A DNA stretch of 49,002 bases from positions 1 through 49,002 of IMG/VR virus record IMGVR_UViG_3300049142_000071; one strand, written 5' to 3'. Positions within the stretch are counted from its first letter, which is position 1; the number at the start of each line of letters is the position of its first letter. Under the pieces are notes generated by a model. That model saw only the letters and a program-made list of their open reading frames with translations. It made no database searches and was not told where the DNA came from. The stretch comes from a virus. Its lineage: Duplodnaviria; Caudoviricetes. Positions 1 through 46,042 of the stretch are shown piece by piece. The position numbers were made by a program, and so were the translations under genes.

Positions 1-3
1 CTG

Positions 4-45
4 TCGGGGTGGCGGGATTTGAACCCACGACCTCTTCGTCCCGAA
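4..45 (-). other. Attachment-site core: duplicated 3' half of tRNA-Pro(CGG), not an intact tRNA
   Basis: Minus strand reads TTCGGGACGAAGAGGTCGTGGGTTCAAATCCCGCCACCCCGA: anticodon loop CGG, T-arm GGTTCAAATCC, acceptor 3' strand. The upstream sequence (CCGCTA...) cannot form the 5' anticodon stem or D-arm. Confidence 0.9.
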
Positions 46-1947: not shown

Positions 1948-2184
1948 GTGCCACGACCCACCCCGCCCGACGAACGGGTCATCGTCCGCCGCCGCCAGGT
2001 CGGGGAGCAGATCCGCCGTGTGCGCGAACACCACAACCTCACCCAGCAGGCCGTGTGCGGACGGTCCGGGATCGACCTCGCGACGTACAGCCGCATCGAG
2101 CAGGGTCACGCGAGCCCACTCCTCGACACGCTGATCCGCATTGCCGACGCGATCGGTGTCGAACTCGCCGAGCTCGTCCGCTGA
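1948..2184 (+). CDS. Small XRE/Cro-C1 HTH regulator
   Basis: VGEQIRRVREHHNLTQQAVCGRSGIDLATYSRIEQG..SPLLDTLIRIADAIGV is a canonical HTH_3 pattern. Confidence 0.9.
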   Translation: MPRPTPPDERVIVRRRQVGEQIRRVREHHNLTQQAVCGRSGIDLATYSRIEQGHASPLLDTLIRIADAIGVELAELVR

Positions 2185-2221: not shown

Positions 2222-3355
2222 TCAGATCACTGCGCGCCAGCTACCCCTGGCCAGCCGGGTCTGTCCGTCTGGAGTGATGAGCACACGGGCTCCTCTCACC
2301 GGTAGCTCGCCGTGCTGAAGCCAGTAGGCGCGCAGCTCGTCGAGAATGTCCCACAGCCGTCGGGGCCCACTCTGGTGAACGACAGTGTTTCCGCCGGCGT
2401 CAGTGACGGCGCGCGCCCATGAACCGTCAGGGTGCGCCATGACAGCTGTGCGCCGGCCTTCCTGCTCGCGGTAGTCGTGCGCGATGCCGGGGGCAGTGAG
2501 GCCGAGCATCGAGTCGAGGTCCCATGCATTGGCCACGTCCACGACCGGGTACGGGCTCGTCGTCACGTCCTCGCCTTCGAGGTCGTGCGCAGCGGCGAGC
2601 AGGCCGCTCAGGCCGGGCGGGTAGTCGGCGGCGTGCCGTGCGTGCATGAAGCCGGCGCGGTCCCACTCGACGCGGCCCTCGGCACTTCCGTCCGCCCTCT
2701 TCTCCGCAGTGATGAGCAATGACGTTCCCGCGAGGGTGGTGACCAGTCGCCCCCCGGTGCAGAGCGCTTGGAGCCAGCTCTCTGGGATGCTGCGGACGGC
2801 GACCGTCGCGACGATGCGGTCGAAGCTGTTCTCCGTGAAGGGCAGAGGGCCGGTCGCGTCGACGGCCTGGACGGTGGGATGGAGCCCGATCAGGTCCAGG
2901 CGGTCACGCGCTATCTCGGCGAGGTAGCTGTCGACGTCTACGCTCTTGACCGCTTCTGAGCCGAGGCGCCGCGCGGCGAGGGCGGTCCCGTATCCGCTGC
3001 CGGTGCCAACGTCGAGCAGCTCGTCACCGTCGTCCATCCGTGCGTGTTGGAACATGCGCACGACGAGACTCGGTAGCGTCGCCGAGGACGTCGGCCGGCC
3101 CGTCGGGTGGTCGTCAGCCTTGGCTTGGTCTGCGTGCAGGGGGCCGACCTGAGTCACGAGCGACCGGTCAGCGTACGCGGCGCGGAACCACTCGGTGTCC
3201 GTGACCGCCTCGCGCAGCGTCCACCGTCCGTCGTCGACCTCCCACCACTGGGGGATGAACAAGTGCCTCGGAGTGCGGGCCACTACCGGACGCCACCGCG
3301 ACGTCCTGTGGGTGACGCTGTCGGCCAGGTTTACGGCGGCTGTTTCCCAGATCAC
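2222..3355 (-). CDS. RiPP-associated protein-L-isoaspartate O-methyltransferase (PIMT) homologue, TgmC/FxlM/OlvS-like
   Basis: PRHLFIP, PTSSATLPSLVVRM, SAM motif LDVGTGSGYGTA, FDRIVAT, GGRLV, and a long C-terminal domain with HQSGPRRLWD. GTG 3355 overlaps the radical SAM stop (GTGA). Confidence 0.85.
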   Translation of the reverse strand: MIWETAAVNLADSVTHRTSRWRPVVARTPRHLFIPQWWEVDDGRWTLREAVTDTEWFRAAYADRSLVTQVGPLHADQAKADDHPTGRPTSSATLPSLVVRMFQHARMDDGDELLDVGTGSGYGTALAARRLGSEAVKSVDVDSYLAEIARDRLDLIGLHPTVQAVDATGPLPFTENSFDRIVATVAVRSIPESWLQALCTGGRLVTTLAGTSLLITAEKRADGSAEGRVEWDRAGFMHARHAADYPPGLSGLLAAAHDLEGEDVTTSPYPVVDVANAWDLDSMLGLTAPGIAHDYREQEGRRTAVMAHPDGSWARAVTDAGGNTVVHQSGPRRLWDILDELRAYWLQHGELPVRGARVLITPDGQTRLARGSWRAVI

Positions 3356-4257
3356 GCGGACGCTCCGAGGGCGGGCGCAGGTGCGAAGTCGTATGCAGGA
3401 TTGCACGCTTCGGTGCTAGCAGGGTCGCAGTCGCCCGAGTCGTCCGGCGGGCAGGCGTTGCTGGGCGCCGGTACAGCGTCGGTGAGTTCCTGCCATCGGT
3501 CGCTGCGAAGAATGTCAGCGAGGCGCTGTTCGCGGACGTTCCCGGCTACCAGGAAGCGCGACAGGATGCAGCCGGACACGGCACCGTTGGGGTCGACGGA
3601 TACGCGGTAGCGGAAGCAGTTCCCGCACAGTTCCGAGGTGCTCGGGATGGACCTGGAGTCGGCGGCGCGGCCCACCATGCGTGCGCGGTCGATCTGGATC
3701 CGGGAGACGCCCAGGGCCTGCAGCTCTGCCTGCGCCTGGGCGACACGCTGCCCTTCGAGAACCTCGACGATGCCGACGCGGAGGGGGATTCCCCGCCGGA
3801 CAGCCTCGGTGATGTTGCCGCGAGTGCGCTTGAAGCTGCCAGGCCCGTTGGTGATCTGCTCGTGTTCTTCTGCGCGGTCGCTGTAGTAGCTGGTGGCGAG
3901 GCAGACCCCGGGCCGCTCGAACGCGGACCACAGGCCGGGGCGGACGTGGGTGAGGTTCGAGTACACCTCAACCCGGAGTCCGGCCGACAGGGCGTGGTCG
4001 ATGTACTGCGGCAGGTGCGGGGAGAGAGTCGGCTCGCCCCCGATGAACTGGACAGCCGGGATGCCGAGCTCGGCGACGTCGCTGATGACCTGTTCCCAGT
4101 CCGTACGGCGCATGTTCCCGGCGCTGACCTTCGGGCCGGAATCGGTACAGCAGTGTGTGCACTGGAGTTGGCAGGTGCCGGTGATCTCCAGTTCGACGGA
4201 GCGGATCGCGGCCGTGATCGCGTCGACACCCGTGTGGGGGACAGCGACAGTCGTCAT
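3352..4257 (-). CDS. Radical SAM protein with Twitch/SPASM-like domain and Cys/Asp/Pro-rich C-terminal tail
   Basis: CQLQCTHC (CX3CX2C), FIGGEPT, LCGNC...VDPNGAVSGC...GNVRE. RBS AAGGAG upstream of ATG 4257. Confidence 0.92.
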   Translation of the reverse strand: MTTVAVPHTGVDAITAAIRSVELEITGTCQLQCTHCCTDSGPKVSAGNMRRTDWEQVISDVAELGIPAVQFIGGEPTLSPHLPQYIDHALSAGLRVEVYSNLTHVRPGLWSAFERPGVCLATSYYSDRAEEHEQITNGPGSFKRTRGNITEAVRRGIPLRVGIVEVLEGQRVAQAQAELQALGVSRIQIDRARMVGRAADSRSIPSTSELCGNCFRYRVSVDPNGAVSGCILSRFLVAGNVREQRLADILRSDRWQELTDAVPAPSNACPPDDSGDCDPASTEACNPAYDFAPAPALGASA

Positions 4258-4397
4258 GTGCTTCTCCTTGTGAAGGGGGGCAGCCCCGCCCTGGGGCGCG
4301 GGCGTCGGAGGATGCGACCCTGACCCTGCGGTCGCCATGGGGCCCACGTCACTGGGGTGCGTCTTCAGTGGCGCCGGGCGTCTACCGCGAGTGATCG

Positions 4398-5219
4398 TTA
4401 GTTCGCCTTCGGGCAACAGGGGCACGGCTGCCCGGCTGGCATGTGCGCGGCTCCCGTGCACGCGTGGTCGCCGCCGAAGATCCGCGCCGTCGCGCACGGC
4501 TCGCACGGCAGGACAGCTTTCGAGAGGCGCTTCAGCAGTCCGGCATACCGATGGCCGTTGCGGACCAGGCGCCACAGGGCACGTCCGGTCTCGCACTTCT
4601 CGGCATCGTCGACGCACTGCTCGCACTGCGGGGCGTGCTTGTGAAGGGCACCGAAGGCAGCACTTCCGGAACAGGCCTTGCAGCCGCGGGGGAACCAGTC
4701 GTAGGCCCCGTCCAGGCGTCCCTTGCGGCGGGGGCCTAGGTCGACGGCGGTCTCGGCGGTGAGGATGACGCCGCACCAGACGCAGGCCTTCCCGCGGACT
4801 TGGCCCTCGGACAGCACAGAGAGGGTTGGGAGCACGAGGAGGGCGAGCGCCTGGCGGGCGCCGTTACTGTCCTCCAGCGCGGCCTGGAGGGCGCGGGGGT
4901 CGGTGATCCATCCGTCGGTACCGGGGCAGACGCGCCAGTGCGGGCCGCGGCCCTCGGTGAGCCGTGCCGGGGGAATTGCCACGGTCGATCCCTCACCGAG
5001 CGCGCGGGTGCCGGCCACTTCCCACCGCGCGGCCGTGCCGACGGGGGTGAAGAAGTACAGGAGTGAGGTGAGGGGGTCGTCGACAACCGCTCCGCAACGT
5101 GAGCCAAGGATGGCGACGGCCGATACTCCGACGGTGCGCGGTACGCGGATGACGTCCCAGTCCTGTCCGGCCTCTTCGAGCGTGCAGCCTGCGGCGGACG
5201 GTAAGCGCGTGGTCGGCAT
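4398..5219 (-). CDS. Hypothetical protein: N-terminal Streptomyces-type domain plus Cys-rich putative Zn-binding region; TTA codon at residue 6
   Basis: RBS GAGGAG; motifs CVWC, CKAC, CEQC, CEPC, CPCC. Confidence 0.75.
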   Translation of the reverse strand: MPTTRLPSAAGCTLEEAGQDWDVIRVPRTVGVSAVAILGSRCGAVVDDPLTSLLYFFTPVGTAARWEVAGTRALGEGSTVAIPPARLTEGRGPHWRVCPGTDGWITDPRALQAALEDSNGARQALALLVLPTLSVLSEGQVRGKACVWCGVILTAETAVDLGPRRKGRLDGAYDWFPRGCKACSGSAAFGALHKHAPQCEQCVDDAEKCETGRALWRLVRNGHRYAGLLKRLSKAVLPCEPCATARIFGGDHACTGAAHMPAGQPCPCCPKAN

Positions 5220-5286
5220 CGATGGCTCCTCGGGGCGCCTGGTGGATCAGGTGCGTACAAGGGTGGCCCTGTCGTTGGGGCATGCC

Positions 5287-5369
5287 GAGGACTTGCAGAG
5301 GTCTTTTCGCTGCCGTAAAGAGGACTTTCGTGCGCTCGGTAGGGTGGCGGCTGGCCAATTGGAGGACTC
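5287..5369. promoter_or_regulatory. Direct repeats GAGG(A/T)CT(T/C) in the divergent promoter region
   Basis: Copies start at 5287, 5298, 5320 and 5362 (spacings 11, 22, 42). Confidence 0.55.
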
Positions 5370-5410
5370 GGGGCGACACTTGCGGCAGTGCTCACCACGG
5401 AGGTGCATCA

Positions 5411-6625
5411 GTGGCACGCCCCGCAGGAAACCGTCGCCTCAAGGCCGCACGCCTCGCGGCTGGTTACCACTCTCAGCAGGCCCTCGCCGATGTCCTCAAG
5501 GTCGGCGTTCGGCAGGTCCGCCGGTGGGAATCCGAGGCGCCGCCCTGGCCACAGCCTGAGGTAGCCCAGGCTCTCACACGGGTCCTGGGACAGGAGTTGG
5601 AAGCGCTCGGATTCACCCCGCCCGGCGGTGTCCCAGCCGGGCCCCGCCGCACGGTGCTGGCTGCGACTGGAGGGCTCGCCGCGGTCCCTACCCAGACCGT
5701 CGCAGTGCAGCCCGCGACCGCGGCCGACGACTACGCGGCGGTCACCCGCTCGCACCGGCGGCTGTACTGGTCTGTCGCGCCGGCCACCCTGCACCCTGCC
5801 GCGCTCGCGCACGCCACCTTCGGCTGCGCCCTGCTGCCGGAGACCGTCGGCCAGACCCGGACGCGCATCGCCGCGGCCCTCGCCGAGACCTGGCTGCTGA
5901 GCGGAAGGATCGAGTTCTTCGACATGCGCGACGCCGACCGCGCGCAGCAGACCCTGCTCCGTGCTCTCCAGGCTGCGGGCGAGGCTGACGATCCGCTGCT
6001 CGGCGCCGCGATCCTCGCGCACACCGCGTTCATCCCTGGGTGGGCCGGTGAGCGGGAGGCCGCAGTCGAGCGCATGGTGGCCGCGCGCACCTACGCCCGC
6101 CGCGGCCCTGCGTCGGCCGAGCTGCTGGCGTGGCTCGACGCCGTCGAGGCCGAATGCGAGACCCGGTGCGGCAACACCAGGACCGCGCTGCACCTGATCG
6201 GTCACGCCGAAGACGTCCTCGCCGCTGGCTCAGAGCACAGCTCGCCTGAATGGCTCGACTGGTTCAGCCCGGTCCGGCTGTCGGCTTTCAAGGGGAACAC
6301 CCAGCTGAAGGCGCGGCATCTGCCGCAGGCCCGCGAGACCCTGCTCGGCGTCCTGGACGCGCTCGACCCGGCCGAGGAGAAACAGGCGACGGTCGTGCTC
6401 GGCGACCTCGCTGCCGTCGAGGCGGCCGCCGGTGACCCGGAGGCCGCGTGCGGGTACGCGCTGAGGGCGCTCGATCAGCTCGAGCGGACGTGGTACGCCA
6501 TGGGCATGGACCGGGTGCGCGAGGTGCGGCGCACCCTGGCGCCGCACCAGCACGAGCAGTGTGTCCGCGACCTCGACGACCGCCTCTACGGCTGGTCGAC
6601 GACCGTCAGCGCGCTCAGCCGTTGA
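5411..6625 (+). CDS. XRE HTH transcriptional regulator with TPR-like helical C-terminal domain
   Basis: NRRLKAARLAAGYHSQQALADVLKVGVRQVRRWES HTH, followed by Ala/Leu-rich helical repeats. RBS GGAGG upstream of GTG 5411. Confidence 0.85.
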   Translation: MARPAGNRRLKAARLAAGYHSQQALADVLKVGVRQVRRWESEAPPWPQPEVAQALTRVLGQELEALGFTPPGGVPAGPRRTVLAATGGLAAVPTQTVAVQPATAADDYAAVTRSHRRLYWSVAPATLHPAALAHATFGCALLPETVGQTRTRIAAALAETWLLSGRIEFFDMRDADRAQQTLLRALQAAGEADDPLLGAAILAHTAFIPGWAGEREAAVERMVAARTYARRGPASAELLAWLDAVEAECETRCGNTRTALHLIGHAEDVLAAGSEHSSPEWLDWFSPVRLSAFKGNTQLKARHLPQARETLLGVLDALDPAEEKQATVVLGDLAAVEAAAGDPEAACGYALRALDQLERTWYAMGMDRVREVRRTLAPHQHEQCVRDLDDRLYGWSTTVSALSR

Positions 6626-7268
6626 ACTCGGCGATCAGGCCGGGCAGTTCCAGGAGGCTCTCGACCCTGAAGGTCGGGAGCTTCTCCGCTTCCTCAGTCC
6701 GCCACTGGATCGTCGCCCACGGACCACGGTGTACGAGGGCCGTGTGCATCCCCGCGGCGACGGCCGGGCGGAGGTCGTTGTCGACTCGGTCGCCGACGTA
6801 GAGGATCTCGTCGTTGGCGACCGGGGTGACCTCGGCGACCCGACGGAAGAACTCTGGGTCTGGCTTGCTGGCGCCCCAGTCGTCCGAGGTGCCGATCAGG
6901 TCCACATCGTCCGTGAACAGCTCGCGCAGCAGCTTCCCGGCGCGGACCGTCTGGTTGCCCGCGATCCCGAGCCACAGGCCATCCGCCCGCAGTTGGTGCA
7001 GGGCGGGGCGCACGTCGGCGTACAGGTCCTCTTCGCCGAACGTCTCGGGCTGGCCGGCGGCGGCCCGCTTCTCTCGCTCGTCATATAGGTCGAAGCCCGG
7101 CCGGAATTCCTGGAAGGTCTCGCGGTAGTCGCGCCCCTGCGCGATGACTGCCCCAAACATCGAGTGGAAGGTATGGCGGGGTACGCCGAGCCAGTCGGCC
7201 CAGGTCCCGTACTCCCGAGTCTCGTCCACCAAGCACTCGCCGACATCGAACACCACTGCACGAATCAT
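6615..7268 (-). CDS. HAD-superfamily hydrolase/phosphatase
   Basis: Motif I VVFDVGECLVD, SKPDPEFF, and motif IV YVGDRVDND. Confidence 0.92.
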   Translation of the reverse strand: MIRAVVFDVGECLVDETREYGTWADWLGVPRHTFHSMFGAVIAQGRDYRETFQEFRPGFDLYDEREKRAAAGQPETFGEEDLYADVRPALHQLRADGLWLGIAGNQTVRAGKLLRELFTDDVDLIGTSDDWGASKPDPEFFRRVAEVTPVANDEILYVGDRVDNDLRPAVAAGMHTALVHRGPWATIQWRTEEAEKLPTFRVESLLELPGLIAEFNG

Positions 7269-43948: not shown

Positions 43949-44163
43949 TGGCTGAACTCCTGCTCTTCCAAGGGAAGTTGGTCGTCGGCCACGGGTACGG
44001 GCCGGGCGAGGACGGCACGGAAGCGGGCCGGGTCCTGGCGGATCGCGGCGCGCTGGGCGGGGGCGAGCTTGCGCCAGCAGCGGCCGCCGATCCCGCCCCG
44101 CTGCCGTGCGGCTGCGGACCGGGTCGGCTGGTGACACATCGGGCACTCGACAGGCGTACTCAC
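43945..44163 (-). CDS. DUF6011-like Zn-finger protein
   Basis: CPMCHQP..S..RQRGGIGGRCW; GTGA coupling. Confidence 0.65.
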   Translation of the reverse strand: MSTPVECPMCHQPTRSAAARQRGGIGGRCWRKLAPAQRAAIRQDPARFRAVLARPVPVADDQLPLEEQEFSQ

Positions 44164-45677
44164 CCGGCACCGCCGACCGGGGCGGTGGCGGCCCGCCAGG
44201 CGTCGAGGACGCGCTTGGGGATCTGGCCGACGCGCGGGCAGGCGATCCCGTTCTCGGCGGCCCATGCCCGGACGGTGCGGGTGTCGTAGTCACGGACGAC
44301 CGTGCCGGCCTTCCGCTTCTTCTTCGCCGGGGCGAGCTCGGCCTGGCGCGCGGTGAGTTCGGCGAGCTGCTTCTCCAGCTGCTCGCGCTGGGTGGCGATG
44401 GCGGTCAGTTCCTCATCCGTGGCGTGGCGGTTGCGCAGGCCGGTGAGGATGGCGCGGCCGCGGGCGGCCTGGTCCCGGATCTCGGGGTCGGGGTGCTCGT
44501 CGCCCCATGCCAGGAGGTCGTCGACCGGGAGCTTGGAGGCGGTGAGTTCGGCGGCGGTTGTGTCGGGCATCAGGTCTGGCTCCTCGGTCGGGGCGGTGGG
44601 GTTGGGGAGGTGGAGGCGGTTGTCGCGGGCGGCCTGCGGGCCGCCCTGCTCGTCGATCTCGTCGAGCAGGTTCTTCAGGGCCTGGACTGTCACCGGCGGC
44701 TCCTTCTTCGGCAGGGCAGCGCGCAGGGTCTCGTCGGTGAGGTGCGGCCCGGAGATGCAGGCGCTCACACCGCAGTTGCTGAACACACGCCCTGCTGGCG
44801 GGCGGCCGTAGTGCTGCTCGAACACGACGTGCCGGGCGTTGAACCGCGTGTTCTCGGCGTAGAGCTGGGGCAGGCGACCGGACATCGGCCCGGTCCACCG
44901 GGCATGCCCTTCGCCGTACGGCTCGACGTGCTCGGCGAGGACCTCAGCCTTGGGACGGGAGGCGTGCCCGCCGGTCTGCCCGGACGGCTCGAGGCCCGCC
45001 TGGCGGCGGATGCGGATGATGGTCGGAGGGCTGATGCCGACCTGCTCGATGATCTGGCTGTACGGCGCCCGGGCGCGCAGCAGCTCGATGGTGCGGCGCT
45101 CGATCTCCGCGCGCTCCTCAGGCGTGTACCGGTATCCCGGACCTGTTCGGTATGGGATGCCGTACGCCTTCCGAGTCGCGGTGACCACCGGGGAGCTGAC
45201 GTTCAGCTGCTTCATGATCTGCCGGTGTGTGAGGCCTTCACGCAGGAGCTCGGCGACGTCCTCGCGCGGCGTCGCGGGGGCAGGCTCGGCCCGCTTGCGC
45301 GGCTTGCCTACGGTCGGCGCCGGGCCGGGCTTGGCAGCAGTCTTCTTCGGGCGTGCGGGCGTCTTGGGCTTCGCCGGCACGCTCGCCTTCGCGGCCGGGG
45401 CCGAAGCAACGGGGAGCTGGCGAAGGACGTTCAGGGCGGCACCGCGGTCGGCGGGCAGGACGGGCAGTGCGCGGCGTTCCTGGTAGGTGAGGCCGCCCCA
45501 GATGCCGTTGGTGGCCTTGCTGTCGAGGGCGTCGTGCAGGCACTCGGCGCGAACCGGGCAGCCGCCGCAGATCTCCTTGGCCTCGGTGGGCTTGGCCGTG
45601 GCGAACCTACGGCTGTTCTTCCCGCCGCAGGCCGCGGAGGCAGGCCAGTCCGCGGCCGCCAGAGTGGGCCCGGTCAC
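44160..45677 (-). CDS. Multidomain regulator: WhiB-like, two HTHs, His-Me-finger-like segment, Lsr2-like DNA-binding domain
   Basis: W...AAC...AKEICGGCPVRAECL...GIWGGLT..ER (WhiB); VRAWAAENGIACPRVGQIPKRVLDAW (Lsr2 C-terminal). Confidence 0.85.
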   Translation of the reverse strand: MTGPTLAAADWPASAACGGKNSRRFATAKPTEAKEICGGCPVRAECLHDALDSKATNGIWGGLTYQERRALPVLPADRGAALNVLRQLPVASAPAAKASVPAKPKTPARPKKTAAKPGPAPTVGKPRKRAEPAPATPREDVAELLREGLTHRQIMKQLNVSSPVVTATRKAYGIPYRTGPGYRYTPEERAEIERRTIELLRARAPYSQIIEQVGISPPTIIRIRRQAGLEPSGQTGGHASRPKAEVLAEHVEPYGEGHARWTGPMSGRLPQLYAENTRFNARHVVFEQHYGRPPAGRVFSNCGVSACISGPHLTDETLRAALPKKEPPVTVQALKNLLDEIDEQGGPQAARDNRLHLPNPTAPTEEPDLMPDTTAAELTASKLPVDDLLAWGDEHPDPEIRDQAARGRAILTGLRNRHATDEELTAIATQREQLEKQLAELTARQAELAPAKKKRKAGTVVRDYDTRTVRAWAAENGIACPRVGQIPKRVLDAWRAATAPVGGAG

Positions 45678-46042
45678 CGGCCCCACCGGCTCTGCGGCTG
45701 GCCGAACAGCGGGGGCTGGACGGTGGGGCGGCGCCGTGCGGGCCGCGACCTCGGCGCCGCGGGCGGCGGCGTGCTCTGCTGGCTGCCGCCGGTGCAGGAC
45801 CCCCAGTGCGCGATCGCCTTCCACTCCAGGAGCTCGACGTCGGGCCGCTCCGCGTCGAGCTCGCGCACGACCAGGCCGCCGAGCCCGGTGGTGTGCGCGG
45901 CGTACCCGCCCGCCGGGGACGGCAGAGCGTTGAGCGGGATGCGCCGGCCCTTGAGCGATCCGGTACCGGTGGCCCAACGGATCTGGGCGCCGCACCGGGT
46001 GCAGGTGGTGACGCCCTGGGTGGGGTGCGGGGTCGTGGGCAT
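45674..46042 (-). CDS. Zn-binding phage hypothetical protein
   Basis: CTRCGAQIRWA...IPLNA...HWGSC; TGATG coupling. Confidence 0.7.
   Translation of the reverse strand: MPTTPHPTQGVTTCTRCGAQIRWATGTGSLKGRRIPLNALPSPAGGYAAHTTGLGGLVVRELDAERPDVELLEWKAIAHWGSCTGGSQQSTPPPAAPRSRPARRRPTVQPPLFGQPQSRWGR

Follow-up and report, generated by a model that had tools for sequence, protein, structure and literature searches.

A prophage-borne two-gene cassette pairs an aspartyl methyltransferase with a radical SAM enzyme that may modify its own Cys-x-Pro tail

The viral record IMGVR_UViG_3300049142_000071 (Duplodnaviria; Caudoviricetes), analysed here over positions 1 to 49,002 (the whole 49,002-nucleotide stretch is hereafter the window), a prophage of Streptomyces, carries a two-gene cassette in which a radical S-adenosylmethionine (SAM) enzyme ending in three Cys-x-Pro units is coupled to a long homologue of protein isoaspartyl methyltransferase (PIMT). 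On balance, we favour the view that this pair forms a self-substrate system for a peptide made by the ribosome and modified after translation (RiPP), in which the radical SAM enzyme would modify the C-x-P units of its own tail and the PIMT would then convert a tail Asp to aspartimide or isoaspartate. The parts of this view differ in strength: the tail is very probably the substrate of the radical SAM enzyme; the PIMT quite probably acts on a tail Asp; and, given that the tail is the substrate, thioether formation is the probable chemistry. An initial annotation, made from the letters of the window, had already read the tail as a self-substrate, and comparison among homologues supports that reading, with the chemistry predicted from sequence. 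The cassette has the following features (papers are cited throughout for the passages drawn upon).

4264..4269, minus strand: ribosome-binding site AAGGAG, 7 nt 5' of the radical SAM ATG (sequence)
3352..4257, minus strand: radical SAM/Twitch enzyme of 301 amino acids (aa), without an N-terminal RiPP recognition element (RRE) and with a fused Cys-x-Pro tail (sequence, domains, model)
4150..4173, minus strand: SAM-cluster motif C29-x3-C33-x2-C36, invariant in the close-family alignment and in 115 diverse cores, for which CX3CX2C also served as a selection criterion
3568..3627, minus strand: Twitch cysteines of the first auxiliary cluster (AuxI), C211, C214 and C230 (C214-x10-G225-x4-C230), with no motif for a second cluster (AuxII) after them (motif definition from PMC6231123)
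3391..3453, minus strand: predicted core peptide C269-Y289, with C-x-P at C269, C277 and C285 and an invariant D273 followed by Ser (conservation, model confidence)
2222..3355, minus strand: RiPP-type protein aspartyl O-methyltransferase (PIMT, or PAMT, homologue), 377 aa (PF01135, TIGR04188)
2993-3013, minus strand: PIMT SAM motif DVGTGSG (sequence)
2303-2323, minus strand: PIMT WxxxGxL, a variant of WxxxGxP (motif from PMC13001092)

Comparison among homologues indicates that the tail pattern is not a product of chance. In the close family (1593 of 5734 candidates at E up to 1e-20, of which the best 120 were examined, the named sequences among them being almost all from Streptomyces), the full motif C-x-P-x-D-[SGA]-x-x-C-x-P-x5-C-x-P is kept in 117 of 120 homologues, 373 of 374 tail cysteines begin a C-x-P unit, and C269, P271, D273, C277, P279, C285 and P287 are invariant across 77 aligned sequences. 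In the genomic loci that were kept (94 of 100, after removal of four duplicates and two without an in-frame Twitch motif), C-x-P accounts for 384 of 402 tail cysteines as opposed to 2 of 654 cysteines in the enzyme core. The three units exactly eight residues apart reported in the initial annotation are present at C269-Y289 (3453-3391), and the variable repeat number that it anticipated is borne out both in the close family, where tails have three cysteines in 115 cases, six in four and five in one, and in distant members, which reach 55 C-x-P units. Its CX7CX7C spacing does not hold as the defining unit. A wider profile search, accepting E up to 1e-30, gave 900 clusters when grouped at 50% identity, and tails were inspected in the best 150 representatives, 131 of them scorable (13 were without the motif and six ended too early); in this set 873 of 915 tail cysteines are C-x-P, proteins carry 0-55 units, and the spacing runs from 3 to more than 20 residues with a mode of 4-6. 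Pro occupies +2 of the tail Cys in 95% of cases and +1, +3 and +4 in 2-4%, against a background of 15%; apart from this, only Asp (22%) or Asn (10%) at +3 stands out clearly. By this comparison the constant unit is C-x-P and not the 8-residue spacing, and the 8-residue period is limited to this subfamily. The longest tails, with 34-55 units, occur in L199 (an IMG/VR contig), P0262, P0277 and P0240, and a 42-unit tail stands on a viral contig; very long tails are partitioned by recurring hydrophobic-x-Ala-Cys spacers, which may be recognition or cleavage sites.

The absence of a nearby precursor gene, also noted in the initial annotation, extends across the family. No conserved precursor-like open reading frame (ORF) was found among 1628 small ORFs from 99 loci (the 22 largest clusters being judged by eye), and a separate leader-core precursor gene, not found in the fused clusters, is present only in a distant split relative, L116. 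A conserved separate precursor, one of the outcomes that the initial annotation had named as refuting its proposal, was therefore not seen in these clusters. In L116 the repeats form a peptide of their own, 77 aa long, which begins with a YVKP leader, has C-x-P at eight of its ten cysteines and is encoded between a PqqD gene and a radical SAM enzyme. This enzyme bears both a PqqD domain and a cluster of AuxII-type cysteines, and is 32% identical to the window enzyme (P0001) over 247 columns. L116 was alone in having the split form among 68 weaker metagenome loci screened. The gene order there (L116:503-4580) is nucleotidyltransferase, PqqD (with a weak Tat-signal match), the 77-aa CxP peptide, the radical SAM enzyme and a 299-aa ORF without a Pfam match, which by its appearance is a candidate HprK-like protein.

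A possible explanation for so conserved a tail is that it binds metal, whether as a fourth AuxI ligand, as a surrogate for AuxII or as a metallothionein-like sponge for Zn or Cu, in which case the PIMT may modify a metal-folded tail and the radical SAM enzyme would act on another target. That C230 and the first tail Cys lie a rather even distance apart, and that the tail Cys and Asp are invariant within the subfamily, would suit such a role, as would the Asp ligand of PqqE (PMC6231123) and the need of cysimiditide PIMTs for Zn-tetracysteine folding (10.1101/2024.10.02.616296; PMC13001092). We nevertheless consider a metal-binding tail improbable, since a fixed ligand role is hard to reconcile with 0-55 units at free spacing, with intact enzymes that have no C-terminal Cys at all (L107 and L111, whose ORFs are closed, have N-terminal repeats only and nothing after the stop, and in P0211 and P0222 repeats stand at both ends), or with a stand-alone CxP peptide, complete with leader, beside a relative that has AuxII-type cysteines of its own. 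A sponge, moreover, would need no strict Pro at +2, and the small-ORF survey produced no other conserved candidate substrate. The same three observations on unit number, placement and the stand-alone form disfavour the fixed Fe-S role that the initial annotation had named as an outcome that would overturn its proposal.

The reading of the tail as substrate draws further on what the enzyme contains and lacks. It has the CX3CX2C motif, GGE and partial TIM barrel of the radical SAM superfamily (PF04055, residues 24-161), and it belongs with the Twitch-domain enzymes by PF13186 (residues 214-265), by C211, C214 and C230 and by its fold match to SkfB, cluster occupancy being a prediction. SPASM domains have a seven-cysteine motif with CX2CX5CX3C and two auxiliary clusters (PMC6231123); only the CX9-15GX4C half is present here, and the AuxII motif was found in 1 of 257 proteins, which is not the window enzyme. 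Fused members also leave no room for an RRE, with at most 40 residues before the SAM motif in 104 of 111 (28 before C29 in the window enzyme), and neither the cassette nor the 92 ORFs flanking 17 loci gave a PqqD match. In an AlphaFold2 model the core has predicted local distance difference test (pLDDT) values of about 90-98, against values below 50 in the tail (270-272 and 274-290), although column conservation is no lower in the tail (0.82) than in the core (0.73). SkfB, a sactisynthase (PDB 6EFN; PMC6231123), is the best match both by sequence (E 5e-17) and by fold (TM 0.69), at 20% identity, the profile alignment beginning at SkfB residue 110, beyond its RRE. Like the window enzyme it has a Twitch domain and an apparently open AuxI site; unlike it, SkfB carries an RRE at its N-terminus, has its precursor encoded separately and lacks a fused tail and a PIMT.

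Sequence comparison establishes the layout of the cassette, its conservation, the shifting place of the repeats and the lack of an RRE and of AuxII; the steps that follow are proposed. A tail Cys would occupy the site left open in the Twitch cluster with its three Cys, after which a 5'-deoxyadenosyl radical would take a hydrogen from within the same C-x-P unit, producing one small thioether ring (-2 Da) per unit. Because Cys-Pro is the only spacing constant in the family, the simplest link would join the sulfur of Cys(i) to a carbon of Pro(i+2), and the same constant distance suggests one local reaction per unit. The PIMT would then methylate Asp273, at the invariant D-S site (D273-S274), on the modified tail. 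The product would stay inside the cell, tethered or freed by a general protease, with modification proceeding in cis or across a dimer, and tethering would stand in for recognition by a leader and RRE. Published systems offer parallels for single steps: in CteB the substrate Cys occupies the open AuxI site (PMC6231123), CteA has an i to i+2 thioether between Cys32 and Thr34 (PMC8326336), and the PIMTs of RiPP systems act on a modified or folded substrate, methylating one Asp in it (PMC13001092). The ranthipeptide systems CteB/CteA, PapB/freyrasin and NxxcB share short-range repeated Cys motifs with the tail, but they have a full SPASM domain with AuxII, an RRE and separate precursors, and the acceptors given in the passages concerned are Asp, Asn and Thr, with no Pro among them (PMC8326336).

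The tail could be the substrate of a different chemistry, in which Pro would only assist recognition or make a turn: examples are oxidation of each Cys to a thioaldehyde or formylglycine, a sulfur link to residue x (i+1) and epimerisation. We think this unlikely. The anaerobic sulfatase-maturating enzyme (anSME) has as its sulfatase target C-x-P-x-R, which resembles the unit seen here, and its catalytic base is an Asp; the fold matches include both anSME and the epimerase EpeE. The family shows no enrichment of Arg at +4 (53 of 873, or 0.8 times background), and the residue after C230 is Val or Ile, not the Asp of anSME. A SPASM enzyme, anSME oxidises Cys by way of a thioaldehyde, and both of its auxiliary clusters are fully ligated (PMC5491770); the present enzyme has three Twitch cysteines and no AuxII.

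The second gene begins inside the first: its GTG start overlaps the radical SAM TGA (GTGA), in agreement with the translational coupling to a long PIMT homologue that had been claimed. The 377-aa product has a PCMT domain (PF01135, residues 93-227) and an extra C-terminal domain, and its WLQHGEL is a variant of WXXXGXP found in close relatives as well, G349 being invariant and W not retained in distant ones. Its best model is the graspetide methyltransferase TIGR04188 (aligned over 9-366), which we ruled out as an assignment, the score of 266.6 bits lying below the cutoff of 380 and no ATP-grasp match occurring among the 92 flanking ORFs. A cysimiditide or type II pamtide was likewise ruled out, as the tail is without two CXXCXGXG motifs and there is no separate precursor. 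The long PIMT, its C-terminal domain and the WxxxG motif are shared with imiditides (pamtides), cysimiditides and PIMT-tailored lanthi-, lasso- and graspetides, and the D-[SG] candidate site of the window resembles the lasso D(T/S)AD site (PMC13001092); in contrast to those systems, the window cassette has no separate precursor, CXXCXGXG, LanBC, lasso or ATP-grasp enzyme.

The tail type varies with the gene downstream. In the 94 loci the gene 3' of the enzyme encodes a PIMT in 49, a 110-aa ORF in 18, a kinase-like protein in 16, a 120-aa ORF in four, an AAA ATPase in three and another product in one, with none in three; the co-occurrence with PIMT that had been predicted was complete in the first GTDB scan, where a PIMT lay directly 3' in 10 of 10 loci. 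The site C-x-P-x(0-3)-D-[SG] is found at 46 of 47 PIMT loci and at 9 of 45 others, and in L043, which falls inside the PIMT clade, the PIMT is lost and the tail has decayed. Kinase-like partners (L069, L079, L084-L086, L088-L091 and L093-L099) accompany Ser/Thr-rich tails ending C-x-P-G...C-x-P-[RKH]; sub-cutoff APH matches were obtained for 2 of 10 scanned, and of the 15 recovered, 12 have an HxD catalytic-loop pattern and all have [VI]DW and FVK motifs, making them candidate peptide kinases. The 110-aa and 120-aa families (L053:4605-4949 and L080:6130-6495) go with one tail type each; the members scanned had no Pfam or NCBIfam match, and the first family had no Atlas match. On the Amycolatopsis japonica plasmid pAmyja1 (L104:1681-4697), a CxP-tailed radical SAM enzyme stands with a cytochrome P450 and a phosphotransferase, pointing to a possible third tailoring enzyme.

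It might be argued that the enzyme modifies C-x-P sites in a protein encoded elsewhere, by the host or an invading phage, and that the tail serves as a pseudo-substrate for autoinhibition, or as a decoy. This would fit a cassette without protease or transporter that is frequently carried on viral contigs and plasmids, and a self-modifying enzyme may turn over just a few times. Against this, the tail shifts in sequence with the tailoring partner and shows the PIMT-type Asp site in PIMT clusters, and the multi-cassette tails with repeated spacers (P0262, P0277) look like multi-core precursors; we therefore regard a target encoded elsewhere as quite improbable.

Several points weigh against the self-substrate reading. 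It rests on comparative evidence throughout, and the A1 profile has tail columns and may favour tail-bearing matches. A quick tree of the cores places each partner class in one or two clades, with seven changes against a minimum of six, so that the match between tail and partner reflects a handful of events and not 94 independent ones, and a Fisher value computed for it cannot count as valid support. The first tail Cys lies 39 residues past C230 (35-54 in most relatives), and the later AuxI ligands of SkfB and BtrN are at a comparable place (PMC6231123), by which C269 could complete the cluster in a structural role, as its fourth ligand; low tail pLDDT would also be expected of a metal-dependent fold modelled without its metal. 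Identity to SkfB is just 20%, with scores nearly as high for epimerases and C-C cyclases. The split form comes from a single locus with a distant enzyme, and no conserved protease or transporter was found in the family loci.

The gene pair itself had been catalogued before. Lee et al. (PMC10787088; section 2.3, Fig. S13b and supplementary table) list, as 'rSAM-associated?', 249 two-gene clusters of radical SAM enzyme and PAMT for which no neighbouring precursor or substrate was found. These are the same family in the same two-gene layout as the window pair, and 5 of 6 tested homologue accessions appear in their table as the radical SAM partner. The clusters are uncharacterised there, and the fused Cys-x-Pro tail goes unmentioned in the passages covered. 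The initial annotation, which knew of no characterised example, is to be amended in that the pair was already on record as a precursor-less orphan. A review of aspartimide RiPPs (PMC13001092, 2026) has no occurrence of 'rSAM' or 'radical' in the text available, the passages covered of PMC12186529, PMC10288494, PMC8939145 and the cysimiditide preprint (10.1101/2024.10.02.616296) do not describe the family, and the literature searched, which lay largely outside subscription journals, yielded nothing on a radical SAM enzyme with a fused precursor or on a CxP class. The gene pair is a known orphan, and the fused tail as its likely substrate is undescribed in the searched literature. If the tail is the substrate, it would supply the missing precursor for the 249 published clusters; and since enzyme and substrate are co-expressed from one gene, a family of 900 clusters would be open to a one-gene experiment.

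The closest architectural precedent is the fused borosin. In OphMA (PMC8429565) enzyme and core form one chain, self-modification is iterative and both fused and split forms exist. The present architecture fits this logic, with self-modification as a prediction; the borosin enzyme is an N-methyltransferase and not a radical SAM enzyme, and the passages concerned give no second tailoring enzyme acting on a fused core. If our reading is right, radical SAM chemistry would join the self-modifying RiPP precursors, aspartimide formation would gain a new scaffold, and a Cys-Pro crosslink may emerge that could serve peptide engineering.

The cassette is a general actinobacterial one, often found on prophages and plasmids. 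Profile matches occur in 80 of 401 Streptomyces genomes (one of them, G135, is unpublished and was only counted), in 4 of 401 genomes sampled across the phylum, and in 28 plasmid and two phage records; 22 distinct viral contigs have a family member, with the fused C-terminal tail in all 22 and a PIMT in eight. The flanks of the PIMT loci (92 ORFs, 17 loci) hold mostly ordinary chromosomal or XRE/DUF5753/HATPase genes and a few integrase, resolvase, recombinase or lysin genes. Taken with the plasmid and phage matches, these flanks mark the cassette as mobile but not phage-specific, which amends the initial description of a system carried by a phage. Loss appears frequent from the broken copies: in L041 an insertion-sequence-like element parts enzyme from tail, and L023, L042, L006 and L102 have frameshifts or a deletion. 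In a Mycobacterium abscessus prophage (L103:2071-2955; MW584157.1 gp78, with the same gene in MW584209.1), a member lies between the lysis genes and the integrase, has an in-frame TGA, which may be a nonsense change or recoding, between the enzyme and a five-unit CxP tail, and stands before a gene with the annotation 'RNA demethylase'.

That the cassette serves in phage defence or superinfection exclusion is guessed tentatively, by analogy; recurrent prophage carriage makes phage defence testable. The analogy is functional only, and is to the lanthiphages or lanthivirins (10.1101/2024.06.26.600839; 10.64898/2026.08.26.747419), which come from PIMT-bearing actinobacterial RiPP clusters that are mostly without a transporter (and, in the coi cluster, without a protease) and are commoner on prophages or plasmids; they differ in having lanthionine chemistry, separate precursors and an anti-phage activity demonstrated for them alone. 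More speculatively still, and doubtfully, the family may be a large undescribed RiPP class of RRE-less radical SAM/Twitch enzymes that would form Cys-Pro thioether rings in fused repeats (up to 55), with swappable tailoring partners (aspartimide PIMT, kinase-like and others); prophages and plasmids of actinobacteria would spread them as modules that work inside the cell against phages or exclude superinfection. On that view the family would hold the first radical SAM RiPP maturase that is its own substrate, and a crosslink of a new type.

Within the window, matches to terminase, portal, tape measure, endolysin, holin and tail fibre give a prophage context, and the cassette lies with the tail fibre on one side and, at 1-45, a tRNA-like end on the other. 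Its neighbours are as follows.

4398..5219, minus strand: 273-aa ORF upstream of the cassette, accessory, found in three other loci (without Pfam, NCBIfam or PHROG match)
5222..6625, plus strand: NsdA-family helix-turn-helix (HTH)/TPR regulator, divergent from the cassette (NF053720, 209 bits, cutoff 75)
6615..7268, minus strand: HAD hydrolase, convergent with the regulator and not conserved alongside the cassette (domain match)
1948..2184, plus strand: small XRE HTH gene, convergent with the PIMT (domain match)
1..45, minus strand: tRNA-like sequence, 3' half, present once in the record (sequence)

The tRNA-like sequence is likely the att end of the prophage, and ARAGORN found no whole tRNA. 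The true start of the regulator is probably near 5414. The 273-aa ORF (4398-5219) resembles two small Streptomyces accessory genes joined, its second half being Cys-rich. Two plus-strand ORFs, at 601-1044 and 1169-1747, lie between the att-like end and the cassette, one being an HTH gene and the other encoding 192 aa with no family match, and at 44160-45995 on the minus strand a 611-aa ORF combines WhiB-like, HNH-like and Lsr2-like PHROG matches in a single chain.

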